Source: Candidatus Dormiibacterota bacterium
GTDB lineage: Bacteria > Chloroflexota > Dormibacteria > Aeolococcales > Bog-877
DNA: 64,000 nt
Reading direction: 5' to 3'
NCBI GenBank assembly: GCA_027306595.1
Contig: DAHUZI010000016.1
Span: 962 to 64,961 of the forward strand
Positions 7,342 through 51,268 of this stretch are shown piece after piece. Position 1 is the first letter of the stretch. Each line of letters starts with the position of its first letter. The translations under genes were made by a program, and so were the position numbers. The notes under the pieces were generated by a model. That model was not told the DNA's origin and ran no database searches. It saw only the letters and a list, made by a program, of their open reading frames with translations.

Positions 7342-7522
7342 CCTGAGTCCTCCCCGTGTCCGGCATCCCGTCACGAGCGGCTGTCTTGCCATCGTGGAGG
7401 GGCTCGGGACGGCTGTCAAACCGCAACCCGCCGACCGGCGTGGGGTTGGACGCCGGCGCCGGCCCCGCCCGTATCATCGGTCGGCCGTCACGGATCCGTT
7501 CGGCGTGCACCGGAGGGTCGCC

Positions 7523-8449
7523 ATGCGTCTGCGTCGAGCCGTCCTCGCCTGCCCCGGCTCGAGCCCGAGGATGATGGCGCGCGCGGCCGGGAGCGGGGCC
7601 GACGAGGTGTTCCTTGACCTCGAGGACGCCGTCGCGCCGTCTGAGAAGGTGGCGGCCCGACAGCTGGTCGTGGACGCGCTGCGGCACCATGACTTCGGCC
7701 GCAGCCTGCGCTGCGTGCGGGTCAACCAGATCGGCTCGGCCCTGGTGCTGGGCGACATCGAAGCGGTGGTTCGCGGGGCGGGGGACCGACTGGACACCCT
7801 GATGCTCCCCAAGGTCCAGGACCCCGGGGACCTCGCCTTCGCCGACCGGCTGCTGACCGGCCTGGAGGCCGAGCTCGGGCTGGCGCGGCCGATCGGACTC
7901 GAGGTCCAGATCGAGGACGCTCGGGGCCTGGTGCACGTCGACGCGATCGCCGCCGCGGCCCGCGTCGAGGCGGTGGTCTTCGGGCCGGGCGACTTTGCCG
8001 CCGCCATGGGCATGCCCCAGCTGACCGTCGGGGCGGAGTCGCCCGCCTATTCCGGGGACCTCTGGCACTACCCCCTCTTCCGGATCGCCGTGGCGGCGCG
8101 CGCCAGCGGGCGGCAGGCCATCGACGGGCCGTTCGCCGCCATTCGGGACCTCGACGGGCTGGGCCGCTCCGCGGCTCGAGCCGCGGCACTCGGCTACGAC
8201 GGCAAGTGGGCGCTCCATCCGACCCAGCTCGACGTGGTCACCCAGGCGTTCACCCCGACTCGAGCCGACTTCGAGCGCGCGCAGGCGATTGTCGCTGCCC
8301 ACCACGCCGCCGCCGATGGCGATCGCCGGGGGGCGGTCATGCTCGGGGACGAGATGATCGACGAGGCCTCGAGGAAGATGGCGGCCCAGCTGGTGACGCG
8401 CGGCATCGCCGCCGGCCTCGGGGACTCCACGTCCGCGGCCGCGCCGTGA
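7523..8449 (+). CDS. CitE/HpcH-family CoA-ester lyase (probable malyl-CoA/beta-methylmalyl-CoA lyase)
   Basis: RRAVLACPGS, VFLDLEDAVAP, LMLPKVQ, EVQIEDARG, FGPGDF, GYDGKWALHPTQ and MIDEASRKMA. Confidence 0.9.
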   Translation: MRLRRAVLACPGSSPRMMARAAGSGADEVFLDLEDAVAPSEKVAARQLVVDALRHHDFGRSLRCVRVNQIGSALVLGDIEAVVRGAGDRLDTLMLPKVQDPGDLAFADRLLTGLEAELGLARPIGLEVQIEDARGLVHVDAIAAAARVEAVVFGPGDFAAAMGMPQLTVGAESPAYSGDLWHYPLFRIAVAARASGRQAIDGPFAAIRDLDGLGRSAARAAALGYDGKWALHPTQLDVVTQAFTPTRADFERAQAIVAAHHAAADGDRRGAVMLGDEMIDEASRKMAAQLVTRGIAAGLGDSTSAAAP

Positions 8450-12907: not shown

Positions 12908-12985
12908 CCCCAGCCGGGGTCGCGGGCGGCGCGCCGTGGCATCCTCTAGCCCACCGGCGGCGGCCGCTGCGGTGAGGAGGATCCC

Positions 12986-13483
12986 ATGCAGTTCGGACGG
13001 TATCTGGAGGAGTTCACGGTCGGGGCCACCTACCGGCACTGGCCGGGCAAGACCATCACCGAGGCTGACGACCACCTCTTCTGCGCTCTCACCCTGAACC
13101 ACCATCCGCTCCACACCGACGCCGCCTACGCGGCCGAGCGGACCCAGTTCGGGCGCAACGTCGTGGTCGGCAACCTCGTGTACAGCCTGGCGGTGGGGAT
13201 GAGCGTCGCCGACGTGAGCGGGAAGGCGATCGCCAACCTCGAGGTCGACGCGCTCCGCCACCTGGCCCCCACCTTCCACGGGGACACGATCTACGCGGAG
13301 TCGACCGTGCTGACGGTCACGCCCTCGAGGAGCCGACCTGACCGCGGCGTGGTGACGGTCGAGACCCGCGTCCGCAACCAGCGGGACGAGCTGGTCTGCT
13401 CGTTCCGCCGCGCGGTGCTGGTGCCGACCCGTGCGGCCCACCCCGACCTCCAGCCGCCGGACGGCGCGCCGCCGTCGCGATGA
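12986..13483 (+). CDS. MaoC family dehydratase (probable actinobacterial-type mesaconyl-CoA hydratase)
   Basis: MQFGRYLEEFTVGATYRHWPGKTITEADDHLFCALTLNHHPLH...PTFHGDTIYAES...SRPDRGVVTVET hot-dog fold. Confidence 0.9.
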   Translation: MQFGRYLEEFTVGATYRHWPGKTITEADDHLFCALTLNHHPLHTDAAYAAERTQFGRNVVVGNLVYSLAVGMSVADVSGKAIANLEVDALRHLAPTFHGDTIYAESTVLTVTPSRSRPDRGVVTVETRVRNQRDELVCSFRRAVLVPTRAAHPDLQPPDGAPPSR

Positions 13484-18692: not shown

Positions 18693-19010
18693 ATGCGCGA
18701 GCTCCTCGATGACATCGATCGCTGGCGGACCGCTGGCCGGAAGGTCGCGATCTGCCGGGTGGTGGACCTTGAGGGCTCCGGGCCCCGGCTGCCTGGGGCG
18801 GCGATGGCGGTGAGCGAGGACGGGGAGGTTGCCGGATCCGTCTCCGGCGGCTGCGTCGAGGGGGCGGTGGTCGACGAGGCCCTCGCCATGCTTCGCGCGG
18901 GCGCGCCCGCGCACCTGGTCCGCTACGGGATCAGCGACGATGACGCGTTCGCGGTCGGCCTGACCTGCGGCGGCACCATCCACCTCCTCATCGCCCCTTT
19001 GGACTGGTGA
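18693..19010 (+). CDS. XdhC/CoxI family protein, N-terminal module
   Basis: GSGPRLPGA, GSVSGGCVEGAV and AFAVGLTCGGTI. Confidence 0.93.
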   Translation: MRELLDDIDRWRTAGRKVAICRVVDLEGSGPRLPGAAMAVSEDGEVAGSVSGGCVEGAVVDEALAMLRAGAPAHLVRYGISDDDAFAVGLTCGGTIHLLIAPLDW

Positions 19011-19789: not shown

Positions 19790-19837
19790 CCCGCGCGGCC
19801 GACGGCTGGCCCCCGGCCGCCGTCGCCGCGGCGGGAC

Positions 19838-33020: not shown

Positions 33021-34398
33021 CGACGATCTTGTCCAGCTGGCCCACATACGTGGCCAGGGCAGCGTGGACACTCATGCCGGTCGCAAGGTTCTGGGCGAGC
33101 TGCTGGATGAGAACCGACACCTGCGGGTACACCGCCAGCGAGGGCCGGTAAGCTGTGATCGGAAGGCACTGCTGGGCGATGAACGTGAGCATCGGGTGGT
33201 GCTGGAAGGCCACCTTGTTGACGATCGAGTTCGCCGAGATGAACTGCTTGAGCGGCTCGTACCGCAGCAGCGACGCGGTGGATTGCTCGTAGGTGAGGAA
33301 GCGCCACGCCAGCGCCGGGTGCTTGGTGTTGGGATTGAGGGTGGTGCCGCCGCCACCCGATAGGGTGACGAAGTCCTGACCGCGGAATCCCGCTCCCGGC
33401 TTCTGCGCCGGGATAAGGGTCCATGCCACGTTCTGGTTGCGGCCCGGCATCGGGTAGATGCCGGTGGAGTTGATCACCGATTCGTAGAGGTACTCGCTCT
33501 CAAGGTAGATCCCGACCTTGTTCTGGGAGAAGGCCTGGAATGTCTCGTTGCGCCCGTTGGGGCCAAGCTGGAGCTGCGAGTTGGCCAGACCGGTGGAGTA
33601 GATGGTGTGGTAGAACCCGGCCGCCGCCCGCATCGCCGCGGTGTTGCCCTGCCACTTGCCGGTGCTCTCGTTGTAGATGAGCTGCCCGGCTCCGGCGAGG
33701 ATCGGCAGGTAGCCCTGGAGCGTGGTCGCCTCGCCCATCTGCGCGCCGCCATCGATCTGGAGCGCCTCGATGCCGGGGTCCTTCTGCTGGAGGGTCTTGG
33801 CGGCTGCGATCACGTCCGCCCAGCTGGTGGGATGCCAGGGCATCTGGATCCCGGCATTGCGGAAGAGCTGGGTGTTGTAGAAGAGGACCCGGCCGTCGGT
33901 GCCGCCCGGGATCCCGTACTGCTGGCCCTGGAACTCGGTGATCGCCTGGACGGTCTGGGGGATGTTCTTCCAACCCGCCCACTTCAGGGCCTGAGGACCG
34001 ACGAGCTGATCGATCGGCTTGAGGTACCCCGCCTGGGCGAACTCCCCGTAGTAGGGCCCATCCAGGTCGAAGATGTCAGGACCGCCGCCGGCCTTGATGT
34101 CGAGGGCCAGGGCGTTGGCGTAGTCCTGGCCACTCACGCCGCTGCCGATCAGCTTGATGGTGACCGGCTGGCCCTTGGCGCGCATGCTCTTCTCGAAGCC
34201 GGGGATGACGTCCTTGGTCAGCCAGACGGCCTCGGCCGCGTTCTTGCCGTGGAGGACAGCGTTTATCTCGACCGTGAGCGTGACCGGCGCCGCCTCGGTC
34301 TTCCCCATGACCGTTGCGCCTGTACCTACGATCGAAGCCAGGAGCACAGTCGTCCCCAGGGCGGCCAGGCTCCGGCGCCGCGGTCGCAACTTCACCAT
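32995..34398 (-). CDS. Carbohydrate ABC transporter extracellular solute-binding protein (family 1)
   Basis: Signal peptide, GGGPDIF, YGIP, LFYNTQLF, PTSWAD, SGGGG and AWRFL. RBS GAGGAGGAG. Confidence 0.93.
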   Translation of the reverse strand: MVKLRPRRRSLAALGTTVLLASIVGTGATVMGKTEAAPVTLTVEINAVLHGKNAAEAVWLTKDVIPGFEKSMRAKGQPVTIKLIGSGVSGQDYANALALDIKAGGGPDIFDLDGPYYGEFAQAGYLKPIDQLVGPQALKWAGWKNIPQTVQAITEFQGQQYGIPGGTDGRVLFYNTQLFRNAGIQMPWHPTSWADVIAAAKTLQQKDPGIEALQIDGGAQMGEATTLQGYLPILAGAGQLIYNESTGKWQGNTAAMRAAAGFYHTIYSTGLANSQLQLGPNGRNETFQAFSQNKVGIYLESEYLYESVINSTGIYPMPGRNQNVAWTLIPAQKPGAGFRGQDFVTLSGGGGTTLNPNTKHPALAWRFLTYEQSTASLLRYEPLKQFISANSIVNKVAFQHHPMLTFIAQQCLPITAYRPSLAVYPQVSVLIQQLAQNLATGMSVHAALATYVGQLDKIVGAAHVANS

Positions 34399-35371: not shown

Positions 35372-35519
35372 CGGACGGACGGTCAGGCCGAGCTCGACCG
35401 GCCGCCCGCGGCGGCAGCTCCGTCAGGTGATCGCGCGAGAGGGGTGGGGCAGGCGGGCAATCGGGGGCCGGGCGGCGTTCCGCCCGTGCGGTGCGCGCCG
35501 CCGGGCGGGAGCGCGCCCC

Positions 35520-36557
35520 GTGAACCTCCAGGTGGATGCGACACGGGTCGGAGGACGCGCTACGGAAACGGACGGCGAGGGTGCGGCTGAGGGCGGCGCG
35601 TCGGAGGACGAACCGTTCGACGTCCTGACGACCGGGCGCGTCGGTGTGGACCTCTACCCCCTCCAGAGCGGCGTTGGCCTGGAGGACGTCACCACCTTCG
35701 GCAAGTTCCTGGGCGGCACCGCCACCAACGTCGCGGTCGCTGCGGCCCGGTTGGGGCGGCGAGCGGCGGTCATCACCCGCACCGGGGCGGATCCATTTGG
35801 TGTCTACGTCCACAAGGCGCTCCGTGCGCTCGGGGTCGACGATCGCTGGGTGAGCGCGGTGGCGGAGCTGCCCACGCCGGTCACCTTCTGCGAGCTCTTC
35901 CCCCCCGACCGCTTCCCGCTCTACTTCTATCGCACGCCCACCGCGCCGGATCTCCAGATCCGGCCTGACGACCTGGACCTCGCGGCGATCCGAGCCGCCC
36001 GGGTCTTCTGGGTCACGGCGACCGGCCTGTCCCAGGAGCCCAGCCGGTCGGCAGTCATGGCCGCGCTCGCAGCTCGGGGTCGACGCCGGCTCACCGTTCT
36101 CGACCTCGATCACCGTCCGCAATTCTGGCCTTCGATGGCGGATGCGCGGCGCGAGGTCACCGTAGCCTTGGAGCAGGTCACCGTGGCGGTCGGGAACGTC
36201 GAGGAGTGCGAGGTCGCGACCGGCACCCGCGACGCGCGGGCGGCCGCCGCCGCCCTGCTCGGGCGCGGGCTCGACCTGGCGGTGGTCAAGCGCGGGCCCG
36301 ATGGGGTCCTCGCGCGGGATCACGGGGCGGAGGTCTCCGTGCCGGCGGCCCCGATTGCGGTGGTGAACGGGCTCGGGGCCGGCGACGCCTTCGGCGGCGC
36401 CCTCTGCCACGGTCTCCTGGCGGAATGGCCGCTCGATCGGTGCCTGCGCTTTGCGAACACCGCCGGGGCGATCGTGGCCTCCCGGCTCGCCTGCGCCCAA
36501 GCTATGCCCACCGCGGAGGAGATCGACGCCGTGATGGGGGCCGGGCAGCGTGTCTGA
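35520..36557 (+). CDS. iolC: 5-dehydro-2-deoxygluconokinase
   Basis: DVLTTGRVGVDLYP, FGKFLGG, FPLYFYR, DLDHRPQFW and NGLGAGDAFGG (PfkB). Start uncertain. Confidence 0.93.
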   Translation: MNLQVDATRVGGRATETDGEGAAEGGASEDEPFDVLTTGRVGVDLYPLQSGVGLEDVTTFGKFLGGTATNVAVAAARLGRRAAVITRTGADPFGVYVHKALRALGVDDRWVSAVAELPTPVTFCELFPPDRFPLYFYRTPTAPDLQIRPDDLDLAAIRAARVFWVTATGLSQEPSRSAVMAALAARGRRRLTVLDLDHRPQFWPSMADARREVTVALEQVTVAVGNVEECEVATGTRDARAAAAALLGRGLDLAVVKRGPDGVLARDHGAEVSVPAAPIAVVNGLGAGDAFGGALCHGLLAEWPLDRCLRFANTAGAIVASRLACAQAMPTAEEIDAVMGAGQRV

Positions 36558-37482
36558 CGACCGGGCGCGCCGCATCGCCCAGCTGCGGCTGCGCCGGCCG
36601 GAGGCGATCCAGGAGGCCGCGCGCCGCCGCCGGCGGCTGGCCCGGCCGGACCGCCCCGATGCGGTGGTGATCGTCGCCGCCGACCACTCGGCCCGGGGGG
36701 TGTTCCGGGCCGGGGCCGACCCGCTGGCGATGGCCGACCGGGGCACTCTGCTGGATCGGGTCCTGGTGGCCCTGGAGCGCCCCGGGGTCGACGGCCTGCT
36801 GGCGACCGCCGACGTGATCGAGGACGTTCTCGCCGTCGGGATTCTGGAGGGGCGCCCGGTGCTCGACGACCGACTCGTGTTCGGGTCCATGAATCGGGGC
36901 GGGCTGACGGGCACGGTCTTCGAGATCGATGATCGCTTCACCGGCTTCTCCGCGGCGGGCGTCGCCGCCCTTGGGCTCGACGGCGGGAAGATGCTCCTCC
37001 GCATCGACCCCGACGACGCCGCGGCGGTCCGGACGTTGGAGACGTGCGGCCGGGCGGTGACGGAGCTCGCCGAACGTGAGCTGATCGCCCTTGTGGAGGT
37101 CTTTGTCTCCCATCGAACCCGGACCCGGGTGCGCAACGACCTCGCGCCGGAGTCAGTGATGCGCTCGATTGCCATCGCGTCGGGGCTTGGCTCGACCTCC
37201 GCCTACACCTGGCTCAAGGTGCCGGTGGTCGACCGCATGGAGGAGGTGATGCGGGCCACCCTGCTCCCGTCCCTGATCCTCGGGGGGGAGGTGAGCGGTG
37301 ACCCGGGGGAGGCCCTGGCGCGCTGGGGCGGGGCACTCCGCCTTCCCAATGTATGCGGGGTGGTGATGGGGCGCTCGATGCTCTATCCCGCCGATGGGGA
37401 TGTGGCCGGAGCGGTGGACCGGGTCGTTGAGGAGGTTCGCACCGCCCGGCCGCGGGCAGACGGCCGGGCGGTCATGGCGTGA
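36550..37482 (+). CDS. Actinobacterial iol-cluster DeoC/LacD-like aldolase (Cgl0159-like)
   Basis: AADHSARG, GSMNRGGL, FEIDDRFTG, GGKMLLRID and GLGSTSAYTWLK. Confidence 0.88.
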   Translation: MSDDRARRIAQLRLRRPEAIQEAARRRRRLARPDRPDAVVIVAADHSARGVFRAGADPLAMADRGTLLDRVLVALERPGVDGLLATADVIEDVLAVGILEGRPVLDDRLVFGSMNRGGLTGTVFEIDDRFTGFSAAGVAALGLDGGKMLLRIDPDDAAAVRTLETCGRAVTELAERELIALVEVFVSHRTRTRVRNDLAPESVMRSIAIASGLGSTSAYTWLKVPVVDRMEEVMRATLLPSLILGGEVSGDPGEALARWGGALRLPNVCGVVMGRSMLYPADGDVAGAVDRVVEEVRTARPRADGRAVMA

Positions 37483-38399
37483 CCCACCCCCTGCACCTCG
37501 CGCGGCCGCCGGGCGGGCCGACCCCGGCCGTAACCCCATCGGTCGCGGGCTGGACCTACTGCGGCCTTCGCATCGTCGAGCTCACGCCCGGAGGCTCCCT
37601 CGAGCTGACCACCGGGTCGTGCGAGCTGGTGATCCTCCCGCTGGCCGGAGCCTGCCGAGTCGGCTGCGACGGTCGCGAGTTCGAGCTGGCCGGACGACCC
37701 GACGTGTTCTCTCGGGTGACCGACTTCGCGTACGTGCCGCGCGACGCGACGGTCCGAATCGAGAGCGCTGGCGGCGGGCGCTTCGCGCTCCCCAGCGCCG
37801 AGGCCCGCACCCGCCGTGAACCCGTCCATCGACCCGCGGAGTCGGTCGCCGTCGAGGTTCGTGGTCGGGGGGCGGCCACCCGTCAGGTGAACAACTTCCT
37901 CGATCCCAGTGTGCCGATCGCCGATCGGCTCATCGCCGTTGAGGTGCTGACCCCCGAGGGCAGCTGGTCGAGCTACCCACCCCACAAGCACGACACGCCG
38001 GGCCCGGGCGAGGCGAGGCTCGAGGAGATCTACTACTTCGAGATCGCGCGCCGCGCTCCGGCCGGCCACCGCCGCGTCGGCGAGGGGTTCGCCCTCCAGC
38101 GCCTCTACACCGCCGACCGCTCAATTGACCTGTGCGCCGCGGTTGCCCACGGCGACGTCGTCCTCATCCCCCGCGGCTACCACGGGCCGTCAGTGGCGCC
38201 CCCCGGCTATGACCTCTACTACCTCAACGTCCTGGCCGGACCGGCCGCGGACCGGACGATGGCCTTCTGCGACGATCCCGCCCATGCGTGGGTGCGAGGT
38301 GCCTGGAGCGGTCAGCGTGCCGATGCCCGCCTCCCGATGACGTCCGCCGCCGGCGCCGTGGTGATTGCCCCCGACGGATCCGGTCCGGGGACGGCGTGA
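37479..38399 (+). CDS. iolB: 5-deoxy-glucuronate isomerase
   Basis: EVLTPEGSWSSYPPHKHD, LEEIYYF, PRGYHGP and YYLNVLAGP. Confidence 0.97.
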   Translation: MTHPLHLARPPGGPTPAVTPSVAGWTYCGLRIVELTPGGSLELTTGSCELVILPLAGACRVGCDGREFELAGRPDVFSRVTDFAYVPRDATVRIESAGGGRFALPSAEARTRREPVHRPAESVAVEVRGRGAATRQVNNFLDPSVPIADRLIAVEVLTPEGSWSSYPPHKHDTPGPGEARLEEIYYFEIARRAPAGHRRVGEGFALQRLYTADRSIDLCAAVAHGDVVLIPRGYHGPSVAPPGYDLYYLNVLAGPAADRTMAFCDDPAHAWVRGAWSGQRADARLPMTSAAGAVVIAPDGSGPGTA

Positions 38400-40294
38400 T
38401 GCGGGAGCCCGGCGCGGGGAGCTCCGCCGAGACCCGGCGCTTGACCATGGCCCAGGCGCTCGTCCTCTACTGTTCACGGCAGTACACCGATGCAGCCGGC
38501 GAGCGACGACGGCTCATCCCGCGTGTGCTCGGCATCTTCGGCCACGGCAACGTCGCCGGGCTGGGCGCCGCCCTCGATGAGTTCCGCAACCAGATGCCGT
38601 ACGTGCAGGGGCGCAACGAGCAATCGCTCGTGCACGCGGCGGTGGCCTACGCCAAGGCGTCGCGGCGGCGCTCGGTCCTCGCGGTGACCTCGTCGATCGG
38701 TCCCGGTGCCACCAACATGGTGACCGGCGCCGCGCTGGCGACGATCAACCGGCTCCCGGTCCTGCTCCTTCCCGGTGACGTCTACGCCACCCGGCGACAA
38801 GGCCCGGTGCTCCAACAGCTCGAGCACCCCCTGGCGGGGGATCTCAGCGTGAACGACTGCTTCCGCCCGGTCGCGCGCTTCTTCGACCGGATCTGGCGAC
38901 CCGAGCAGCTGCTCACCGCCCTCCCGGAGGCGATGCGGGTGCTCACCAGTCCGGTCGAGGCGGGGGCGGTCGTGCTGGCCCTGCCCCAGGACGTGCAGTC
39001 CGAGGCCTACGACTACCCGGATGCGTTCTTCTCCGAACGGACGTGGACGATCGAGCGAGTCGAGCCCTCGCCCGGCCAGGTCGAGCAGGTGGCAGCCCTG
39101 CTGGCGGCGGCGACGCGACCCCTAATCGTCGCCGGGGGCGGGGTCGTGTACGCCGAGGCGGAGGCGGCCCTGGCGAGCCTCGCCGGTCGGTTCGGCATCC
39201 CGGTGGCGGAGACGTTCGCCGGCAAGGGTGCCGTCCAGCAGGCGCGGTGGTGGGGGCTGGGCGGGCTGGGCGTGGAGGGCAATCCCGCCGCCAACCAGGT
39301 GGCCACCAGCGCTGATCTCATCGTTCAGGTCGGGACCCGGCTCACCGATTTCGCCACCGCCTCCCAGTCCTTGTTCCAGCACCCGTCGGTGCGGTTCGCG
39401 TCGATCAACCTGAGCGACCGCGATGCTCGCAAGCAGGGGGCGGCGCCCATGGTCGCCGACGCCCGCCTGGGCCTGGAGGCGCTCGGGCGGGCGGCGGCGG
39501 TCGCCGGCGTGCGCCCCCGCCCGGCCTGGGAGCGCGAGATCCGCGCGGCGCTGGCCCGCTGGGGCCCGCTGCGCACAGCCGCCCTCGCGCCGCAAGGGCG
39601 CCCGCTGACCCAAGGGCAGCTGATCGGGCTCCTCCAGGCCGCCGCTCGGGATGGGGATACGATCCTCGCCGCCGCCGGCGGTGCGCCCGGCGACCTCCTC
39701 AAGGTCTGGGACGCGACGGGCGGTCGCCGCTGCCACCTGGAGTTCGGCTATTCGTGCATGGGGTACGAGATCCCGGCCACCCTCGGGGTGCGACTGGCGC
39801 AACCGGAGGGCGAGGTCATCGCCCTGATCGGAGATGGGACCTTCCTCATGCAGCCGTCGGAGATCGCCACGGCGGTCCAGGAGGGGCTTCGGATCACGGT
39901 TGTCGTGGCCGAGAACCACGCCTTCCACAGCATCGACCGTCTGCAGGGGTCCCGAACCGGTCGGCGCTTCGGCACCGAGTTCCGGCTCCGCCGCCCCGGC
40001 GCGGCAGCGGCCGAGGGGGCGTACCTCCCGCTCGATCTCGCCGCCGTGGCTCGGGGGCTGGGGGCGACGGCGCTGCGCGTCGACACCGCCGAGGCGGCGC
40101 GCTCCGCTCTGGCGACCGCGCGCCGCCAGCCCGGCCCGACCGTCGTCGTCGCCGAAGTCGCGCCCCACGAGGACCTTCCCCCGGCAGGGACCTGGTGGGA
40201 TGTGGCGCCGCCGGCGGTCGCCGGGCTGCCCGAAGTCGGCCCGCTGCGCCAGGCCTACGACCGCGACCGGCTCCTGCAGCGATGGCACGGGTGA
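38399..40294 (+). CDS. iolD: 3D-(3,5/4)-trihydroxycyclohexane-1,2-dione acylhydrolase
   Basis: RLTMAQAL, GIFGHGNVAGLG, SSIGPGATN, LQQLE, EFGYSCMGYEI and ThDP motif GDGTFLM. Confidence 0.97.
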   Translation: MREPGAGSSAETRRLTMAQALVLYCSRQYTDAAGERRRLIPRVLGIFGHGNVAGLGAALDEFRNQMPYVQGRNEQSLVHAAVAYAKASRRRSVLAVTSSIGPGATNMVTGAALATINRLPVLLLPGDVYATRRQGPVLQQLEHPLAGDLSVNDCFRPVARFFDRIWRPEQLLTALPEAMRVLTSPVEAGAVVLALPQDVQSEAYDYPDAFFSERTWTIERVEPSPGQVEQVAALLAAATRPLIVAGGGVVYAEAEAALASLAGRFGIPVAETFAGKGAVQQARWWGLGGLGVEGNPAANQVATSADLIVQVGTRLTDFATASQSLFQHPSVRFASINLSDRDARKQGAAPMVADARLGLEALGRAAAVAGVRPRPAWEREIRAALARWGPLRTAALAPQGRPLTQGQLIGLLQAAARDGDTILAAAGGAPGDLLKVWDATGGRRCHLEFGYSCMGYEIPATLGVRLAQPEGEVIALIGDGTFLMQPSEIATAVQEGLRITVVVAENHAFHSIDRLQGSRTGRRFGTEFRLRRPGAAAAEGAYLPLDLAAVARGLGATALRVDTAEAARSALATARRQPGPTVVVAEVAPHEDLPPAGTWWDVAPPAVAGLPEVGPLRQAYDRDRLLQRWHG

Positions 40295-41406: not shown

Positions 41407-42216
41407 TCAGGCTGTCGCCTCCTCCAGTGCCCGCTGGGTGAGCACCCGGGCCAGGTGGCATCGGTAGTCGGCGCTGGCCCGAAGGTCGGACGGCGGGGTC
41501 AGCCCGTCGGCGGCGCGCGCGCCGGCCCCGGCGGCGCTCTCGCCCTGGGCCAGGGCGGCTTCGGCGGCCCGCGCGCGCAGCGGCGTCGGCCCGCAATTCG
41601 TCAGTCCGAGCCGCCAGCCGCCGTCGAGCCGCTGGGCCGCCACCCCCACGATCGCCCAGTCGCAGCGCCGGCGCCGAAACTTCACGTACCGGTGGGGACC
41701 GGGCGCGACCGGGAAGGCGATCTCGCGGATCACCTCGTCCGCCTCCAGCGGGGTGGTGAAGATGTGCTGGAAGAAGTCGGCGGCAGCGTGGGTCGTCCGG
41801 GTGGTGACGATCTCGGCGTCAAGCATGAGGGCCAGGGTCGGGTAGTCGCCGGCAGGATCGGCATGGGCGATCACCCCGCCGATGGTGCCGCGCGCACGGA
41901 CCTGGAGGTCGCCGACCTCGGCGGCCATCGCCGCGAGCAAGGGCAGCGCCCCGCGGACGACTGGCGAGGCTGCCAGCTGAGCGTGACGGGTCAGGGCACC
42001 GACTCGCAGGCGGTCGCCATCGACCCGGACGCCGTCGAGGCCGGGAACGCGCCCGAGGTCGACCAGCGCCGTCGGCTGGGCTAGCCGCAGCCGCATCAGG
42101 GGGATGAGGCTGTGGCCGCCGGCCAGCACCTTGGCCTCGGGCCCCAGCTCACGGAGCAGGCGGGTCGCATCATCGAGGTCCGAGGCGCGCCGGTACTCGA
42201 AGCTGGCGGGGATCAT
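41407..42216 (-). CDS. coxM: CoxM/XdhB-type FAD-binding subunit
   Basis: MIPASFEYRRA, LAGGHSLIPLMRLRL, VRARGTIGG, HADPAGD and ASADYR. Confidence 0.93.
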   Translation of the reverse strand: MIPASFEYRRASDLDDATRLLRELGPEAKVLAGGHSLIPLMRLRLAQPTALVDLGRVPGLDGVRVDGDRLRVGALTRHAQLAASPVVRGALPLLAAMAAEVGDLQVRARGTIGGVIAHADPAGDYPTLALMLDAEIVTTRTTHAAADFFQHIFTTPLEADEVIREIAFPVAPGPHRYVKFRRRRCDWAIVGVAAQRLDGGWRLGLTNCGPTPLRARAAEAALAQGESAAGAGARAADGLTPPSDLRASADYRCHLARVLTQRALEEATA

Positions 42217-44561
42217 GGGCGTCGAGCCTCCTGGATCAGGCGCCAGAGCCGGTCCGGGCTGGCTGGCATGTCGACATGGCGGATGCCGAACGGCTGGAGC
42301 GCGTCGGACACGGCGTTGATGACCGCGGCGCTGGCGGCGATGGTGCCGGCCTCGCCGACACCCTTCACCCCCAGGGCGTTGATCGGACTTGGGGTGACGG
42401 TCCGGCTCAGCTCCGGCACCGGCAGCTCGCTCATCGTCGGCACGAGGTAGTCGAGCAGGGTGCCGGTCCGAAGCTGTCCGGAGTCGGGGTCGTAGACGAC
42501 CTCCTCGAACAGGGCCTGGGCGATCCCCTGGGCGATCCCCCCCTGGATCTGGCCGTCCACGATCATCGGGTTGACGACCGTGCCGCAGTCGTCGACCGCC
42601 ACGTAGCGGTCGATCGTCACCTGGCCGGTCTCGGCGTCGACTTCGGCAACGCAGACGTGAGCGCCGAACGGCCAGACGAAGTTGGCGGGGTCGAAGTAGT
42701 GAACAGCCTCCAGCCCCTGCTCCATCCCATGGGGCAGGTCGGGGCCGTAGGCGGCGAGCGCGACCTCGGCGAAGCTTCTCGACGCGGCCGGGCTCCCCCG
42801 CACGGCAAAGCGGCCGCCCTCGAAGATGACGTCGGCCTCGTCCGCCTCCAGCAGATGGGCGGCAAGTCGGCGCGCCTTCTCCACCACCTTGATGGTGGCG
42901 CCACGAATCGCCATCCCGCCCACCGACAGGCTCCGGCTTCCGTACGTGCCGTAGCCAAACCCCGTCCCTTCGTCAGTGTCGCCGTGGTGGAGCTCGACCT
43001 GCTCGATGGGGATCCCCAGGGTGGCGGCCGCGATCTGGGCGAAGGTCGTGTCGTGACCCTGCCCCTGGGCGTGGGTCCCGACGTACACGGCCACTGATCC
43101 GGTCGGGAACACCCGCACCTGCGCCCCCTCCACCAGGGCGATGCCGCCGGTGGCCGCGGCGGTGGCCGCGCTGGGCCCGAGGCCGCAGATCTCGACGTAG
43201 GTCGAGAGGCCGATCCCCAGGTAGCGGCCCTGGAGGCGGAGCGCTGCTTGACGGTGGCGGAGTGCCGGGTAGTCGACCAGGTCGAGGGCGCGAGCCAGCG
43301 TCCGCCCGTAGTCCCCCGAGTCGTACACGAGCCCGAAGGGATTGGTGAACGGGAACGCCTCCGCGAAGTTGCGGCGCCGTACCTCCGCCGGATCCATCCC
43401 CAGCTCGCCGGCCAGCCGGTCGACCATCCGCTCGACCAGGTGGGTGCCCTCCGGGCGTCCGGCCCCGCGGTAGGGGTCCGTGGGCACCTTGTTGGTCAGC
43501 ACTCCCACGGTGCGCCCCTCGACCCCGCGCCATCGGTAGGCCCCCGGGGCCATGTACACCGCCACCGCCTGGAAGGCGCCGAAGGTGCCGCAGTAGGCGC
43601 CGACGTCGAGGATCTGGGTGAGCCGCATCCCAAGGAGGGTGCCGTCGCGCTTGGCGGCCACCTCGACGTCGTACACCTGCCCGCGCCCGTGGCTGGTGCC
43701 GACCATTGCCTCGCTTCGCGTCTCCACCCACCGCACCGGGCGTCCCAGCAGTCGCGCCGCGGCGGGCACGAGGTAGTCCTCGGGATAGGGGCTGATCTTG
43801 CATCCGAACCCACCCCCCACGTCCCGCGAGACCACCCGCACCTGGGTCTCGGCCATGCCCAGGGCCTGGCTCACGAAGAGGCGGATGAAGTGCGGGTTCT
43901 GGCTCCCCAAGCGGATCGTCAGCCGGCCCCCGTAGGGATCGGGCTCGGCGATGACCACCCGCGGCTCCATCGCCGTCGGGGCCAGCCGCTGCTGCCCGAT
44001 CCGCTCGCGGATGACCACCTCCGCCTCGGCGAACGCCGCGGCCACGTCGCCGCCGGTGTAGGTGACGTCCCAGCACACATTGTCCGGCGCCCCGGCGTGG
44101 GTGCGGGCGCTGTCGGCCTCAAGCGCCCGATCCGGGTCCACCACCGCTTGCAACGGCTCGTAGTCGACGTCGACCAGCTCGGCGGCGTCCGCGGCCGCCG
44201 TCCGCGACAGCGCCACGACCACCGCCACCGGCTCACCCTGGTAGACGACCTCGCGGTCGGCGATCGGGAACCGCTCCGGCACCTGGCGCTTGTCGGCCAC
44301 GAACGACGGGGTCACCGGCATCGTGCCCCGGAGCACGGCACGGAAGTCGGCTCCCACCAGCACTCGAAGCACCCCCGGCGCGGCCACGGCCCTGGCGGTG
44401 TCGAGGGAGCGGATAAGCGCGTGCGGATGCGGGCTCCGCACCACCTGGAGGGCGGTGCAGCCGCGCGGCTCCCCGTCGTCGGTGTAGTGGCCGTGCCCGG
44501 TGATGAGGCGGGGGTCTTCGCGGCGCTGAACGCGGGCGCCGACCAGCTGGGAGACGGCCAT
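42213..44561 (-). CDS. coxL: Molybdopterin large subunit, form II CoxL-like (not form I CO dehydrogenase)
   Basis: RREDPRLITG, DVGGGFG, DPYRGAGRPE, YDSGDY, GQGHDT, TYGSRS, INALGVKGVGEAG; lacks AYXCSFR. Confidence 0.92.
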   Translation of the reverse strand: MAVSQLVGARVQRREDPRLITGHGHYTDDGEPRGCTALQVVRSPHPHALIRSLDTARAVAAPGVLRVLVGADFRAVLRGTMPVTPSFVADKRQVPERFPIADREVVYQGEPVAVVVALSRTAAADAAELVDVDYEPLQAVVDPDRALEADSARTHAGAPDNVCWDVTYTGGDVAAAFAEAEVVIRERIGQQRLAPTAMEPRVVIAEPDPYGGRLTIRLGSQNPHFIRLFVSQALGMAETQVRVVSRDVGGGFGCKISPYPEDYLVPAAARLLGRPVRWVETRSEAMVGTSHGRGQVYDVEVAAKRDGTLLGMRLTQILDVGAYCGTFGAFQAVAVYMAPGAYRWRGVEGRTVGVLTNKVPTDPYRGAGRPEGTHLVERMVDRLAGELGMDPAEVRRRNFAEAFPFTNPFGLVYDSGDYGRTLARALDLVDYPALRHRQAALRLQGRYLGIGLSTYVEICGLGPSAATAAATGGIALVEGAQVRVFPTGSVAVYVGTHAQGQGHDTTFAQIAAATLGIPIEQVELHHGDTDEGTGFGYGTYGSRSLSVGGMAIRGATIKVVEKARRLAAHLLEADEADVIFEGGRFAVRGSPAASRSFAEVALAAYGPDLPHGMEQGLEAVHYFDPANFVWPFGAHVCVAEVDAETGQVTIDRYVAVDDCGTVVNPMIVDGQIQGGIAQGIAQALFEEVVYDPDSGQLRTGTLLDYLVPTMSELPVPELSRTVTPSPINALGVKGVGEAGTIAASAAVINAVSDALQPFGIRHVDMPASPDRLWRLIQEARRP

Positions 44562-44565
44562 CGCC

Positions 44566-45075
44566 CTACTCCGACGACCGCGCGGAGGCGCTGGCGGCGG
44601 TCGACCCGCTCAGCATGCGGCGGCTCGCGGTGCGGACCGCCTTCAGGATGTTGACATAGCCGGTGCAGCGGCAGAGGTTGCCCTCGAGGCCGATCTTGAT
44701 CTCGTCATCGGTGGGGTTGGGGTTGTCGCTGAGGAGCTTGGCGGCCGTCATGATGAACCCCGGGGTGCAATAGCCGCACTGGAGTCCGTGCTCATCCCAG
44801 AACGCCTGCTGGAGCGGGTGCAGCTCATCGCCGCGCGCCATCCCCTCGATGGTGGTGATGGCGGCGCCGTCCGCCTGCACCGCCAGGACGGTGCACGACT
44901 TGACGGCGTCACCGTCGAGCAGGACCGTGCAGGCGCCGCACTGGCTCGTGTCGCAGCCGACGTGGGTGCCGGTGAGCCCCACGGTCTCGCGCAGGTGGTG
45001 GACGAGAAGCGTGCGCGGCTCGACCTCGTCCTCGTGCGACATCCCGTTGATCGTCATCGTGACCCGCTCGCCCAT
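44566..45075 (-). CDS. coxS: CoxS-type 2x[2Fe-2S] subunit
   Basis: 3' end of track ORF 44566..48450: [22 protein letters not shown] and [12 protein letters not shown] 45075 follows GGGAGGG. Confidence 0.96.
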
Positions 45076-45354
45076 CAGCGCCCTCCCGAGGTGATCCCGC
45101 GCTCCGACGCGGTCGCTTCGATCGGGAGCGACCCACCCCCGGAGCGGGTGTCGTCCCGGCTCGCCCGCCCGGCGCCCGCCCCGCCCGGGGCCGTCCCGCC
45201 GGAGCGGCCTGCCCGGATCCCGTTGGAGTATCGCGCCGGCGCCAGGGTATGGCAAGGAGGCGGCCGGGCGTACAGTTGGGACGTGCGCGCCGGCACTCGC
45301 GCCCGCCGCGAACAGGGGGAACCGGGGCCGCCCACCGGTTCCAGAACCGCCCCC

Positions 45355-45909
45355 GTGCCTGCCGATGCCGCTCACCGGGGGGAGGGGGCGGCGCCCGCCG
45401 ACCGCGGGCCGGCCACAGGCGGTGGGGCCTCTGGTCCGGCGGCGATCCACCTCCACCGGGTCTACGATCGGCGATCCCCGCCCGCAGGCCTGCGCGTTCT
45501 CGTCGACGGTCTGTGGCCGCGAGGGGTGAGCCGGGAAGCCCTCGGTCTCCACCTGTGGCTGCGAAGCGTGGCCCCCTCGGATGCCCTGCGGTGCTGGTAC
45601 GGGCATCGGCCCGAACGCTGGCCGGTGTTCGCGCGACGATATCGCGAGGAGCTGCGAACCCCGGAGCGGGCCGCGGCGCTGGACCAGCTCCGCACCCTGC
45701 TCGTCGACGGGCCGGTGGTGCTCCTCTACGGATCGCGCGACGATCGCCGCAACCAGGCCGTCGTGCTCCGAGCGGTGCTCTTGGCGACCGCGGCTGGCAG
45801 ACCGGCGGCGGCCGCGGCCGCGGCTGCCGAGCCCGGCATCGGTGCCGCTATCGTGAGCGGAGCAACGACCGTTCGGGGCGGTCGGGCCGGGATCCGGCCG
45901 TCCGAGTGA
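45355..45909 (+). CDS. DUF488 (YeaO-like) family protein
   Basis: RVYD...[14 protein letters not shown]...[25 protein letters not shown]...LLYGSRD..RNQAVVL. Start uncertain. Confidence 0.85.
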
Positions 45910-46869: not shown

Positions 46870-47199
46870 GGCGCAGCGGCAAGCCGACCGGCCCGGTCCA
46901 CGTCCCCCGGCTCCGGCCCCCTGGCCCCACCAGCGAGGAGCGGGGCGCGCTGGCCGCCCCCCCCAACCACGGCCGGTGCGGGGCGATGGGGTGCCGGGCG
47001 GCGACGGGCCCGAGGGCCGACCGCTCCCGGGACCGACCGGCTGGCCCCGGCCTCGCACTTGGCAGCGAGCGGCCGGGCCGCTACCCTGAGCCGACCGACG
47101 GTCCCAGCCGCGCCGTCGGCGTGTCCCGGGCGTGCGCCCGGGTGCGGGACGAGACCGGCGCGGACCGTGCGGCCCGCGCCGACCCCCGGAGGTGTGCCC

Positions 47200-48402
47200 T
47201 TGACCGCTGCGCTCGCCGAGCCGCTGACTGTCGGCACGCTGCCCCCGACCATGCCGGCCTTCGTCATCCGCCCCGAGCGGGAGGGGGAGCCGGAGCGGGC
47301 CATGCACCTGGAGGAGGTCGCGACCCCCGAGCCCGGACCGGATGAGGTGATCGTACGGGTGATGGCGGCGGGCGTGAACTACAACGGGGTGTGGGCGGCC
47401 CTCGGTCAGCCGGTCTCCGTGTTCAAGCTCCACCGGGAGCCCTTCCACATTGCGGGCTCGGACGCGAGCGGCGTGGTGTGGGCGGTCGGCGCCAACGTGC
47501 ATCGCTGGCACCTCGGCGACGAGGTGGTCGTCCACTGCAACCAGTCCTGTGGTGAATGCCCGGAGTGCAACGGGCTCGACCCGATGGCCTGCAGCGAGCA
47601 GAAGATCTGGGGCTACGAGACCTCGTGGGGCTCGTTCGCCCAGTTCTGCCGCGTCCAGTCCCAGCAGCTGCTCCCCAAGCCGCGCCATCTCACCTGGGAG
47701 GAGGCCGCCTCCTATGGGCTCGTCTACTTCACCGCCTACCGGATGCTGGTCGACCGCGCCCGCATCCGCGCCGGGCAGAACGTCCTGGTCTGGGGTGGCG
47801 GGGGCGGGCTCGGGTCGATGGCGGTCCAGATCTGCCGCCTCTTCTCGGCCAACGCCATCGCGGTTGTGTCGTCCGACGAGAAGGCGGCCCTGACCCGCGC
47901 CCTGGGTGCCAGCGCGGCCATCAACCGCAGCGAGTTCGACCTGGTCAAGCGCGACGGCGAGTCGGCAGAGCAGGCCCGCCACCGGGTCGGGGAGATGCGC
48001 CGGTTCGGCAAGCGCATCCGCGAGCTCACCGGCGGCCGCGACGTGGACATCGTCTTCGAGCACGTCGGTTCCGCGACCTTCCCCACCTCGGTGTTCGTCT
48101 GCTCGCGCTTCGGGCTGGTGGTGATCTGCGGTGCCACCGCCGGGTACAACCTCGAGTTCGACGTCCGCTACCTGTGGATGCGGCAGAAGTCGATCATCGG
48201 CTCCCACTTCGCCAATGCCTACGAGTGCCACCAGGCCAATGAGCTCATCGTCCAGCGCAAGATCCAGCCGGTCGTGGGCGACGTCTTCCCGTTCGAAGCG
48301 GTCCCCCAGGCCCACCAGGTCATGCGCCACAACCAGCACGCCGGCAAGATGGTGATCCTGGTCGGGGCGCCCCGCCGCGGGGCGGGCGTGCATGCCGGGT
48401 AG
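47200..48402 (+). CDS. ccr: Crotonyl-CoA carboxylase/reductase
   Basis: [41 protein letters not shown] and [19 protein letters not shown], carrying the CO2-binding Asn/Glu/His signature. TTG start follows GGAGG. Confidence 0.95.
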
Positions 48403-50071
48403 GGGCGAGCGTTCGGAGCCGTCGGCGGGCGCGGGCGAGAAGCCTCGCACCGGTTCGGGGGCTCGAGCGGACGGCCGCTCGGCGGTCCAGACCCCATCGG
48501 GGCTGCCGGTCGCTCCCTTCTACACGCCGGGTGACGTCGACACGGACGCCTATGCGACCCGAGTCGGCCGCCCCGGGGCCCCCCCCTACACCCGCGGTCT
48601 CAGCGCCGATGGCTACCGGAACCGCCCTTGGACGATCCGCCAGTACGCCGGGTTTGGGACCGGCGCGGAGACGAGCGGACGCTTCCGCCGGCTCCTCGAC
48701 GACGGCCAGACCGGGCTCTCGCTGGCGTTCGATCTGCCCACCCAGATGGGTCTGGACTCCGATGACCCTCGCGCCCGCGGCGAGGTGGGGCGCCTGGGGG
48801 TCGCCGTGGACACGGTCGAGGACCTCGCCGAGTGCTTTCAGGGCATCGATCTCGACCGTATCAGCACCTCGATGACCATCAACGCGCCGGCGCCGGTCCT
48901 GGTCGCGATGTACGTGGTCGCGGCCGAGGCGCGGGGCGTGGGACGGGCCCTGGTGCGGGGCACCGTCCAGAACGACGTACTCAAGGAGTACGTCGCCCGG
49001 GGGACCTACATCTACCCGCCCGGACCCTCGCTGCGGCTGGCGGCCGACCTCATCGCCTGGTGCGCCCGCGAGACGCCGCGCCTCAACCCCATCTCGGTGT
49101 GCGGGTATCACCTGCGCGAGGCCGGCAGCACTGCCGTCCAGGAGATGGCGTTCGCGCTCGCCAACGCCCTCGCCTACGTCGATGCGGTCCTCGCCCTCGG
49201 CCTCACCATCGACGACTTCGCCCCCCGCCTGTCCTGGATCTTCAACACCCAGAGCCACCTGCTGGAGGAGGTGGCCAAGTTCCGAGCCCTCCGACGGATC
49301 TGGGCCGACCTCATGCGAGAGCGGTTCGGCGCCCGCGACCCCCGCTCCCTCCAGCTTCGCACCCACACCCAGACCGGCGGCTCGACCCTCACCGCCCAGG
49401 AGCCGCTGACCAACATCGTGCGGGCGGCCTACCAGGCGCTGGCAGCGGTGCTCGGCGGGGTCCAGTCGCTCGCCCTCTCCTGCTACGACGAGGCGCTGGG
49501 CATCCCCAGCGAGGCGGCGCAGCGGCTTGCCGTCCGCACCCAGCAGGTGCTCCTGGAGGAGACCGGGGTGGCCGACACCGCCGACCCGCTCGGCGGGTCG
49601 TACGCAGTCGAGGCCCTCACCGACGGGCTCGAGCAGCGCGCGCGCTCTCTCTTGGCGGAGGTGGAACGGCGGGGGGGCGCGGTCGCCTGCATCGAGGCCG
49701 GGTGGATGCAGCAGGCGATCCAGGAGGAGGCGGTCCTCGCCGAGCAGGCGCTGGCCGACGGGCGGCGCCGGGTGGTGGGGGTGAACGTCGCCGTCGGCCC
49801 GGGCGGCCCCGAACCCGCCCCCGTGCCAGCCTTCCGGGTCGACCCCGGCCTGGAGGCCGCCCAGCTCGAGCGGCTGGCCCGGGCGCGGAGGGACCGCGAC
49901 CCGGTCCCGGCTCGCGCGGCGCTCCACCGGCTCCGCGCCGCGGCCCGCGATCCGGCCGCCGCGCTGATGCCGGCGATCGTCGACGCGGTGGGGGCGCGCT
50001 GCACGGTTGGGGAGGTGTGCGGCACCCTGGCCGAGGTGTTCGGGCGCTACCGGGCGCCCGCCGTCATCTGA
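48392..50071 (+). CDS. B12-dependent acyl-CoA mutase, substrate-binding (large) subunit
   Basis: [49 protein letters not shown] and DPLGGSY; no DxHxxG cobalamin-binding domain. Confidence 0.93.
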
Positions 50072-50110
50072 ATGGGCGGGGCGGCCGGCGCCCGGCCGAG
50101 GGAGGAGTCC

Positions 50111-51268
50111 ATGACCGAGGACCTGCAGAGCGCGGAGCAGGCGGCCATCGTGGCTACGGTGCGGGCCTTCGTGGATCGGGAGGTGATCCCCCACGCGGCC
50201 GAGTTCGAACACGGGGACCGGTTCCCCGAGGCGATGGTCGAGGGGATGCGGGAGTTGGGCCTCTTCGGGCTCACCGTCCCCGAGCCGTACGGGGGCGCGG
50301 GCCTCGACCTTGTCACCTATGCCCTGGTGGTGGAGGAGCTGGCTCGCGGCTGGATGTCGCTCGCCGGCGTCCTCAACACCCACGTCATCACCGCCTACCT
50401 CATCGCGACGTTCGGCACGGACGCCCAACGGCAGCGCTTCCTGCCGGCGCTCGCCGCCGGACGGCTCCGCGCCGCCTTCAGCATGAGCGAGCCCCAGGGC
50501 GGAAGCGACGTGCAGGCGGTGCGGACTCGCGCCGTCCGCGACGGCGACGCCTACGTCGTCGACGGGACCAAGATGTGGGCTACCAACGGCGCCCGGGCGG
50601 GACTCGTCGCCACCCTGGTGCGGACCGGGACCGAGAACGATCCGCCCAATCGCCGCCTCTCCTGCCTGCTGTGTGAGAAGGGGCCGGGCTTCGAGGCCGG
50701 GGCCCCGATCGCCAAGCTCGGGTACAAGGGTGTGGAGACGACCGAGCTCGTGTTCCGGGGCAACCGGCAGCCGCTCGCCAACCTGCTCGGCTCCGAGGAG
50801 GGTCGCGGCTTCGCGCAGATGATGGCGGGCATCGAGGTAGGCCGGATCAACGTCGCGGCCCGCGGCGTGGGGGTGGCTCGCGCGGCCCTCGAGCTCGCCA
50901 TGGCCTACGCACGCGAACGGCAGGCGTTCGGGCGGCCGATCGCGGAGCACCAGGCCATCCAGTTCAAGCTCGCCGACATGGCGACCCAGATCGAGGCCGC
51001 CCGGCTCCTCACCCTCGCCGCCGCGCGGCGCAAGCAGACGGGCCAACGCAGCGACGTCGAGGCGGGCATGGCGAAGCTCTTCAGCTCAGAGGCCTGCCAC
51101 GACGTCGTCCTGGAGGCGATGCGGATCTTCGGCGGCTACGGGTACAGCACCGCCTACCCGATCGAGCGGCTGTACCGTGATGCGCCCCTGCTGATCGTGG
51201 GGGAGGGGACCAACGAGATCCAGCGACTCATCATCGCCCGCGGCCTCCTGGCGCGCGCCGCTGACTGA
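50111..51268 (+). CDS. Acyl-CoA dehydrogenase (probable methylsuccinyl-CoA dehydrogenase)
   Basis: FSMSEPQGGSDV, GTKMWATNG, KLGYKGVETTEL, GRINVAARG, GGYGYS and GEGTNEIQ; operonic with ccr. Confidence 0.9.
   Translation: MTEDLQSAEQAAIVATVRAFVDREVIPHAAEFEHGDRFPEAMVEGMRELGLFGLTVPEPYGGAGLDLVTYALVVEELARGWMSLAGVLNTHVITAYLIATFGTDAQRQRFLPALAAGRLRAAFSMSEPQGGSDVQAVRTRAVRDGDAYVVDGTKMWATNGARAGLVATLVRTGTENDPPNRRLSCLLCEKGPGFEAGAPIAKLGYKGVETTELVFRGNRQPLANLLGSEEGRGFAQMMAGIEVGRINVAARGVGVARAALELAMAYARERQAFGRPIAEHQAIQFKLADMATQIEAARLLTLAAARRKQTGQRSDVEAGMAKLFSSEACHDVVLEAMRIFGGYGYSTAYPIERLYRDAPLLIVGEGTNEIQRLIIARGLLARAAD

Follow-up and report, generated by a model that had tools for sequence, protein, structure and literature searches.

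The window analysed here, a 64,000-nucleotide stretch of DNA, comes from contig C30 of a 2.6-Mb metagenome-assembled genome (MAG), called G000 below, which is 75.8% complete and about 73% G+C. Three genes follow one another on its + strand and are translationally coupled: ccr, which encodes a crotonyl-CoA carboxylase/reductase, a gene for an acyl-CoA mutase subunit, P0001, and a gene for an acyl-CoA dehydrogenase (ACAD). P0001 resembles the large subunit of split methylmalonyl-CoA mutases (MCMs) and belongs to a clade, called VAR here, which is marked by the signature QS[LM]ALSC[YF]DE. The possibility that it serves as an ethylmalonyl-CoA mutase (Ecm) is the subject of this report. The features of the operon are as follows.

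47059..48402, + strand: ccr, crotonyl-CoA carboxylase/reductase (TIGR01751, 547 bits against a cut-off of 378.55)
48392..50071, + strand: P0001, catalytic (large) subunit of a split adenosylcobalamin (AdoCbl)-dependent acyl-CoA mutase of the VAR clade, candidate ethylmalonyl-CoA mutase (PF01642, 650 bits; TIGR00641, 656 bits)
49235..49240, + strand: Trp282-Ile283 of P0001, strand beta-6, in place of a Phe-Phe that is invariant in 70/70 split MCMs
49355..49375, + strand: LRTHTQT, residues 322-328, strand beta-7, with the His328 and Gln330 equivalents retained and Thr324 for the Phe of split MCMs
49463..49495, + strand: signature strand [11 protein letters not shown], residues 358-368, covering beta-8 and its exit (strand E359-362 in the model)
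50072..51268, + strand: ACAD, 398 aa, FadE3-like, candidate methylsuccinyl-CoA dehydrogenase (Pfam ACAD domains)

The longest reading frame of ccr begins at 47059, the likelier start being a TTG at 47200 that is preceded by GGAGG. Its TAG stop codon (48400-48402) lies in an 11-nt overlap with the ATG of the mutase gene, whose TGA in turn abuts the dehydrogenase ATG at 50072. Among solved structures, the ccr product matches the Ccr 4gi2 best (453 bits), followed by the Streptomyces Ccrs (about 350) and CinF (290). An EamA transporter gene flanks the operon upstream, and a LacI regulator and sugar genes flank it downstream. No cobalamin riboswitch or other RNA element was found in the window.

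The mutase P0001

P0001 is a protein of 559 aa, with a full-length match to TIGR00641 and with PF01642 extending over residues 33-551. PF01642 is the only domain detected, a B12-binding domain being absent by Pfam. The third-position GC of the gene is 0.92, which indicates that the frame is coding. On NF006944, a methylmalonyl-CoA mutase equivalog, P0001 scores 568.8 bits and stays under the cut-off of 876, which is weak evidence because the model was built on fused enzymes.

Residues were mapped through a HMMER alignment to 1req_A, where the chain index plus one gives the numbering of the literature. By this mapping, P0001 retains Tyr89 (as Y85), Gln197 (Q193), Arg207 (R203), Tyr243 and His244 (Y239 and H240), His328 (H325) and Gln330 (Q327). 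Four successive positions are changed, His364 to A361, Thr365 to L362, Asn366 to S363 and Ser367 to C364, leaving A-L-S-C at 364-367, where methylmalonyl-CoA mutases have H-T-N-S. His328 and Asn366 are pocket-lining residues, and the altered strand may widen the pocket for the substrate. P0001 contains each of the motifs [35 protein letters not shown] and [11 protein letters not shown]. The AlphaFold2 model of the protein (pTM 0.82) has its best fold matches in HcmA (4r3u, TM score 0.89) and in MCMs (0.87).

The locus had been singled out in a preliminary description made from the sequence alone, and its particulars agree with what was found. The mutase gene does lie between ccr and an acyl-CoA dehydrogenase gene. 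The MCM-type motifs RQYAGF and LRTHTQT are both there, and a fused B12 domain is not. The departure from the QSLHTNS strand of MCMs, which had been placed at about 49463-49495, occupies exactly those coordinates, and the changes of Asn366 to Ser and of a nearby His to Ala, as well as the retention of the Tyr89 and Arg207 equivalents, could be read from the 1req_A alignment.

The genome has only two mutase large-subunit genes, those of P0001 and P0121, whose products are each about 38% identical to MeaA and 57% identical to one another. P0121, on contig C16, has canonical split-MCM motifs and adjoins a gene whose product passes the methylmalonyl-CoA epimerase model; it is the separate mcm for which the preliminary description had suggested a search. 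The sole B12-binding small subunit is encoded alone on contig C94 (L003:1483-1911; TIGR00640, 164 bits), with its DxHxxG motif in the form GLDGHDRG. Its presence elsewhere in the genome agrees with the earlier view of P0001 as a split-type subunit. A single MeaB is encoded on contig C47.

The VAR clade and the genomes that carry it

The VAR clade is real, conserved and unannotated as such. Among the best 120 clusters at 90% identity, the query included, 117 have the signature; two of the remaining three lack a match to the regular expression, and one has QSLHTN. In one scan of species-representative genomes, the signature was found at 21 of 80 loci, the other 59 being canonical split MCMs, nearly all with LRFHxQT and QSLHTN. 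A search of a representative library gave the motif in 3 of the 150 best representatives, plus two near-variants. The number is small probably because clusters made at 50% identity combine VAR with canonical MCMs, which are about 55% identical to it. The carriers are labelled Chloroflexota (Dehalococcoidia, Tepidiformaceae), Dormibacterota, Methylomirabilis and 'uncultured Actinomycetes'. Relatives of P0001 are named methylmalonyl-CoA mutase in public sources. Within the collection of papers searched, one query being poorly framed, no description of a split or non-canonical Ecm in these phyla was found, and a search for the signature peptides found no paper.

In canonical split MCMs, positions 364-366 are His in 70/70, Thr in 69/70 and Asn in 68/70 sequences, and H-T-N is also retained in MutB, IcmF and 7/8 ICM-like proteins; it is substituted in 31/31 VAR rows. 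Eight positions alone distinguish the 31 VAR rows from the 70 rows of split MCM, namely W282, I283, L300, T324, V357, A361, L362 and S363, with Cys364 also invariant in VAR. By the AlphaFold2 model, seven of the eight are on beta-6 (280-285), beta-7 (323-328) or beta-8 (359-362), or at the ends of beta-8, and these strands also bear His328 and Gln330. The equivalents of Tyr89, Arg207, Gln197 and His244, which are ligands of the carboxylate and thioester, are invariant in all 31 VAR rows. In an alignment of 23 members, columns are on average 70% identical and the catalytic residues all invariant. In an 85-row tree, 30 of the 31 VAR rows form one clade (SH-aLRT 95, starred), the exception being L020, and in a 30-row tree all 12 do so (support 100, starred).

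Two variants of the signature were encountered. At L020:8001-9557, in a low-GC (47%) Chloroflexota genome, a protein with QSLAVSCYDE falls outside VAR and beside canonical split MCM (support 94). A sub-branch within VAR, represented at L126 (genome G055) and L129 (G067), has QTMALCCYDE, His328 changed to Ile and Gln330 to Gly, and a branch length of 1.98; it may have a third specificity.

A canonical split MCM is present in every VAR genome examined. In G002-G005 and G050 it is a separate gene beside that of the epimerase, and G002-G005 each have an ICM-like paralogue besides and no fused Ecm. Full-length isocitrate lyase was found in none of five VAR genomes checked for it (G000, G004, G005, G050 and G115), which gave partial matches of 39-51 bits. 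The examined genomes, including those represented by loci L130-L135, have one small subunit and one MeaB for two to five large subunits (canonical MCM, ICM-like and VAR), with the exception of G004, which has two small subunits. In complete genomes, one small subunit and one MeaB go with two or three intact large subunits. The small-subunit gene adjoins canonical MCM in G004, G005 and G050, and the ICM-like gene in G002 and G003. These counts suggest that one cobalamin small subunit is shared by several large subunits.

Apart from VAR, divergent mutase-like large subunits at L099:1474-3306 and L101:1477-3456 (both on the - strand, in G004) and L127 (G067) form a supported clade of their own. 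Two of the three have Gln for His244, there are substitutions at Tyr243 and Gln330 besides, and the 364-366 strand is unusual. The L101 protein has its own small subunit encoded next door (L135).

Co-occurrence with ccr and gene neighbourhoods

Co-occurrence was studied in 201 genomes of the window's phylum, G000 included. VAR was detected with a degenerate DNA pattern for the motif, and the reversed pattern, used as control, gave no match. VAR is present in 11 of the 201 genomes and ccr, above the cut-off, in nine; eight genomes have both. A further copy of ccr, in G089, is broken across contig ends and is not counted among the nine. In seven of the eight shared genomes VAR and ccr are within 5 kb of each other, and in G169 they are 82 kb apart. 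In the window, G046, G115 and G124 they are next to each other or almost so, and 2-4 kb separates them in G088, G058 and G178, the last an unpublished genome whose distance was taken from coordinates alone. The eight genomes represent three families, so related genomes among them are not independent. In the 201 genomes, a MeaA query found no canonical fused Ecm, the best match being 45% identical, and the five best matches were split MCMs read through into small subunits. The 76%-complete genome of the window likewise gave none with this query, in keeping with the preliminary description.

Further VAR genomes were reached through their loci: two Actinomycetes MAGs (G002, G003), two complete chromosomes, one of Dehalococcoidia and one of Tepidiformaceae (G004, G005), and a Methylomirabilis genome. 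All five have ccr above the cut-off. A second phylum sample, centred on G002, had the motif in 1 of 251 genomes, which was G002 itself, and it is no test of co-occurrence for that reason.

Neighbourhoods were compared in the unbiased set of 80 loci, 21 of VAR and 59 of canonical genes. A ccr gene is near 6/21 VAR loci (in two of these it is in two frames, and in one it is cut by a contig end) and near 0/59 canonical loci. The epimerase gene is near 0/21 VAR and 9/59 canonical loci, and the small-subunit gene near 0/21 and 3/59, respectively. VAR has as its neighbours genes typical of C5-dicarboxylyl-CoA chemistry: small MaoC hydratases (six loci), short-chain dehydrogenase/reductase (SDR) genes (six loci), and also CitE-like lyases and thiolases. 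Succinyl-CoA-ligase-like pairs occur at VAR loci as well, with a lyase/ligase operon at L013 and L014. A region of about 13 kb in three genomes from family f5 contains the genes for a CitE-like lyase, Ccr, VAR, a small hydratase and an ACAD. G050 has a compact operon (L115:3996-10940) of MaoC, CitE-like lyase, ACAD, small hydratase, VAR, an SDR resembling acetoacetyl-CoA reductase, and thiolase, followed by groES/groEL. At L005:6864-7980 and L022:6852-7974, in two Actinomycetes MAGs, ccr directly upstream of VAR is in two overlapping frames, reflecting either a frameshift or an assembly error.

Two more genes of the window, both apart from the operon, could belong to the same chemistry.

12950..13483, + strand: single-domain MaoC hydratase, 177 aa, resembling mesaconyl-CoA hydratase and RipB/Ich (PF19315 MC_hydratase, 72 bits against a cut-off of 26.5)
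7394..8449, + strand: CitE/HpcH-family acyl-CoA lyase, candidate beta-methylmalyl-CoA/malyl-CoA lyase (PF03328, 140 bits)

The hydratase scores 93 bits with the beta-methylmalyl-CoA dehydratase 8hgn of PDB and 135 bits on NF038241 (RipB/Ich), the latter below the cut-off of 340. Its gene adjoins that of the ACAD orthologue at L110, L111, L112 and L115. The lyase is 48% identical to the product of the citE-like gene beside meaA of Streptomyces termitum; with NCBIfam models it scores 155 bits for citE, 141 for RipC and 90 for malyl-CoA lyase, all below the cut-offs. ACAD orthologues, with 56-66% identity, are found in VAR genomes. From these matches the chemistry appears to be that of C5-dicarboxylyl-CoA esters.

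An ACAD gene and a small MC_hydratase gene also occur as an adjacent pair without VAR or ccr, at L136:8690-10359 (G116) and in G080, G098, G107 and G200. In such a pair, the ACAD matches 4iv6 (FadE3) and the hydratase weakly matches 2bi0 (Rv0216).

The rest of the window has genes of other kinds. An inositol-catabolism-like set (PfkB kinase, Cgl0159-like, KduI/IolB-like and a TPP enzyme) lies at 35427-40294 on the + strand, and sugar ABC transporter genes at 31195-34398 on the - strand. Molybdenum-hydroxylase genes at 41407-44561 code for a xanthine/CO-dehydrogenase-type large subunit and an FAD subunit, with accessory genes (XdhC, a CoxE-like VWA protein and an AAA ATPase) about 20 kb from them, at 18654-22022. 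A 373-aa reading frame at 44788-45909 has DUF488 at residues 220-339, and its first ~220 residues, without a Pfam match, may be an artefact of a high-GC open frame.

Predicted function and comparison with known systems

We favour the view, with a probability of about 0.6, that P0001 is the catalytic subunit of a split, non-canonical AdoCbl-dependent ethylmalonyl-CoA mutase. In uncultured soil bacteria, VAR probably takes the place of the missing Ecm in a pathway for the assimilation of acetate. What we infer of the substrate, of the partnership with a shared small subunit and of the later steps is as follows. Ccr would convert crotonyl-CoA and CO2 to (2S)-ethylmalonyl-CoA, which the methylmalonyl/ethylmalonyl-CoA epimerase of the genome would turn into the 2R form. 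VAR, with the only B12 small subunit of the genome and the MeaB chaperone, would then rearrange (2R)-ethylmalonyl-CoA to methylsuccinyl-CoA. The co-transcribed FadE3-like dehydrogenase would oxidise methylsuccinyl-CoA, and the small Mch/RipB-like hydratase and the CitE-like lyase would process the product further. The sum would be ethylmalonyl-CoA-type assimilation of acetyl-CoA in organisms without isocitrate lyase and canonical Ecm.

Several observations weigh against this assignment. P0001 retains His328, a position where Ecm has Gly. The loop of residues 364-372 has a pLDDT below 50 in the model, and the influence that Ala361 and Ser363 would have on the pocket is a presumed one. For its two large subunits, the 76%-complete genome yielded a single small subunit. 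The co-occurrence with ccr has exceptions on both sides: G050, which is 100% complete, has VAR and no true ccr (best match 179 bits), G055 and G067, both 79% complete, have VAR in the divergent QTMALCC form and no ccr, and G070, 96% complete, has ccr without VAR. No pathway gene is present in the DNA fetched for 9 of the 21 VAR loci, some of the contigs being short. The accessory enzymes depart from the canonical types. The ACAD matches FadE3 (4iv6, 448 bits) well above the methylsuccinyl-CoA dehydrogenases 6es9 (265) and 8ciw (173), and its identification as a canonical Mcd was dropped; its orthologues are in 16 of the 201 genomes, eight with VAR and eight without. The hydratase is not a canonical Mch, and small hydratases of this type are in 14 of the 201 genomes, nine with VAR and five without. 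The hydratase and the lyase match RipB and RipC of the itaconate pathway about as well as they match Mch and Mcl models, all below cut-off, so the downstream route may differ.

Some of the same facts are what would be expected if VAR acted on another 2-substituted malonyl-CoA or carboxy-acyl-CoA, such as a longer alkylmalonyl-CoA, or an itaconate-, mesaconate- or methylsuccinate-type intermediate, which we regard as unlikely. The carboxylate ligands are retained while the pocket strands are remodelled, the operon of G050 is without ccr, the ACAD/hydratase pair exists also without VAR, and the resemblance of the hydratase to RipB/Ich (135 bits) and of the lyase to RipC/Ccl (141 bits) points in that direction, both scores being below cut-off; split mutases have also been proposed to act with CCR homologues on hexylmalonyl-CoA (PMC5719088). 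However, the adjacent Ccr passes a crotonyl-CoA-specific equivalog and is nearer to 4gi2 than to the octenoyl-CoA enzyme CinF, the thiolase and the acetoacetyl-CoA-reductase-like SDR beside VAR point to C4 precursors, and the neighbours are genes of primary metabolism, NRPS, PKS and tailoring genes being absent nearby. Less probable still is that VAR is a further isoenzyme of methylmalonyl-CoA mutase for the propionyl-CoA branch, in which the changed strand tunes regulation or stability and not specificity. The 57% identity to the canonical split MCM of the same genome, the retention of all known catalytic and carboxylate-binding residues, His328 included, and the public names of the relatives would be accounted for. 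But no VAR genome examined is without a canonical split MCM, and H-T-N, essentially invariant in 70 split MCMs, is substituted in every VAR row. Moreover, VAR tracks ccr and not the epimerase or the small subunit, and an MCM isoenzyme would leave ccr-bearing genomes without an enzyme for ethylmalonyl-CoA. That VAR might lack a B12 partner of its own, as an orphaned or inactive large subunit, could be argued from the small subunit adjoining none of the 21 VAR loci and from the one small subunit found per genome. This we consider very improbable: the family is strongly conserved, with invariant catalytic residues, the third-position GC is 0.92, the gene is translationally coupled to its neighbours, and the single small subunit and MeaB that complete genomes have for two or three large subunits fit sharing.

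The ethylmalonyl-CoA mutase reading matters for how genomes are annotated. Pathway calls for uncultured bacteria depend on orthology to fused Ecm; with VAR annotated as 'methylmalonyl-CoA mutase', genomes that have ccr without canonical ecm would be scored as deficient in the pathway. If VAR is an Ecm, the assimilation of acetate and C1 compounds in abundant soil lineages (Dormibacteria, Dehalococcoidia/Tepidiformia, Methylomirabilis) needs to be read again, a second natural solution to ethylmalonyl-CoA specificity becomes available for the study and engineering of B12 mutases, and the sharing of a cobalamin subunit among catalytic subunits becomes testable. A wider proposal, which we put forward tentatively and hold to be clearly less probable than the assignment of the mutase itself, is that Dormibacteria, other Chloroflexota, Methylomirabilota and a few Actinomycetota could have a complete, unrecognised ethylmalonyl-CoA pathway with three non-canonical middle enzymes. 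These would be the split VAR mutase with its own route to specificity, a short FadE3-like dehydrogenase for Mcd and a half-size hydratase for Mch, and as many as three catalytic subunits (MCM, ICM-like and VAR) would share one small subunit and one MeaB.

The comparison with canonical Ecm was made with Streptomyces termitum (L098), where a 683-aa protein with a fused B12 domain (PF01642 and PF02310) is encoded between ccr and a citE-like gene. The protein has RTYAGH, FRYGVQVN and Q-L-P at 364-366, and its close homologues, which have the two Pfam domains too, are named 'protein meaA'. Erb and colleagues are said to have identified MeaA as Ecm in 2008, and the residue changes of Ecm reportedly enlarge its pocket. 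RTYAGH, the change of His328 to Gly (RYGVQVN) and that of Asn366 to Pro are what we take to be the family-defining signature; the motifs RTYAGH and RYGVQVN, which the preliminary description had given, are indeed in the S. termitum gene. VAR is like Ecm in being linked to ccr and other genes of the ethylmalonyl-CoA pathway, lying directly downstream of ccr and having a CitE-like lyase in the pathway. It is like Ecm also in retaining the Tyr89 and Arg207 equivalents and in departing from MCM at 364-366, with Leu at 365, and at residue 300. In contrast to Ecm, which is a single chain with a fused B12 domain, RTYAGH, His328 changed to Gly and Q-L-P, VAR is split and has RQYAGF, His328 and A-L-S-C. 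These differences, with an identity to MeaA of 38%, are in line with the earlier judgement that P0001 is not a canonical Ecm.

The preliminary description had further proposed that P0001 evolved independently of Ecm, and here the evidence is divided. Of 76 columns that are conserved across MCM, ICM and IcmF, VAR changes five, and MeaA shares four of these (residues 300, 361, 362 and 363), with the same Leu at 362; the coincidence has a Fisher p of 0.027, calculated with one Ecm sequence and with three of the columns adjacent. As the same sites are hit and mostly by different residues, the pattern resembles convergence. Ecm has a very long branch and falls outside all split mutases in the best trees, with branch supports of 92 and 88, both unstarred. 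However, an approximately unbiased (AU) test, made with 30 rows under LG+G4 and one Ecm sequence, does not reject a clade of VAR and Ecm (delta lnL 1.38, p 0.452), and independent origin, though probable, is unproven for this reason.

With split (archaeal-type) MCM, represented by P0121, VAR shares architecture, fold and catalytic residues, and each is predicted to require MeaB together with a small subunit, separately encoded, of ~140 aa. Unlike split MCM, VAR has the eight clade-specific substitutions on or near beta-6 to beta-8 and forms a separate supported clade; its neighbours are ccr, hydratase, lyase and reductase, whereas those of split MCM are the epimerase and the small subunit. HcmA (4r3u; 501 bits, TM score 0.89), of the same split architecture, is the best match of P0001 among solved structures. 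HCM and ICM (HcmA, IcmA/IcmF) are nevertheless the opposite of VAR in their residues, since Tyr89 is changed to Ile or Phe and Arg207 to Gln in these enzymes, and H-T-N is retained. The ICM-like paralogues in VAR genomes also have F or I at 89 and Q at 207, where VAR has Tyr and Arg in 31/31 rows. An ICM that supplies butyryl-CoA to Ccr for polyketide extender units was considered as a candidate role and rejected, the Tyr and Arg being retained and no PKS being nearby.

The nearest precedent in print is that of ActD and MatB, from the actinonin and matlystatin antibiotic gene clusters, likened to VAR here by their published description. They are split large subunits of an 'HCM-subclass', proposed to act together with an epimerase and a CCR homologue in a series of reactions like that of ethylmalonyl-CoA, and the actinonin producer encodes the small subunit elsewhere (PMC5719088). 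Hexylmalonyl-CoA is the substrate proposed for them, and their genes are in secondary-metabolite clusters (PMC5719088).

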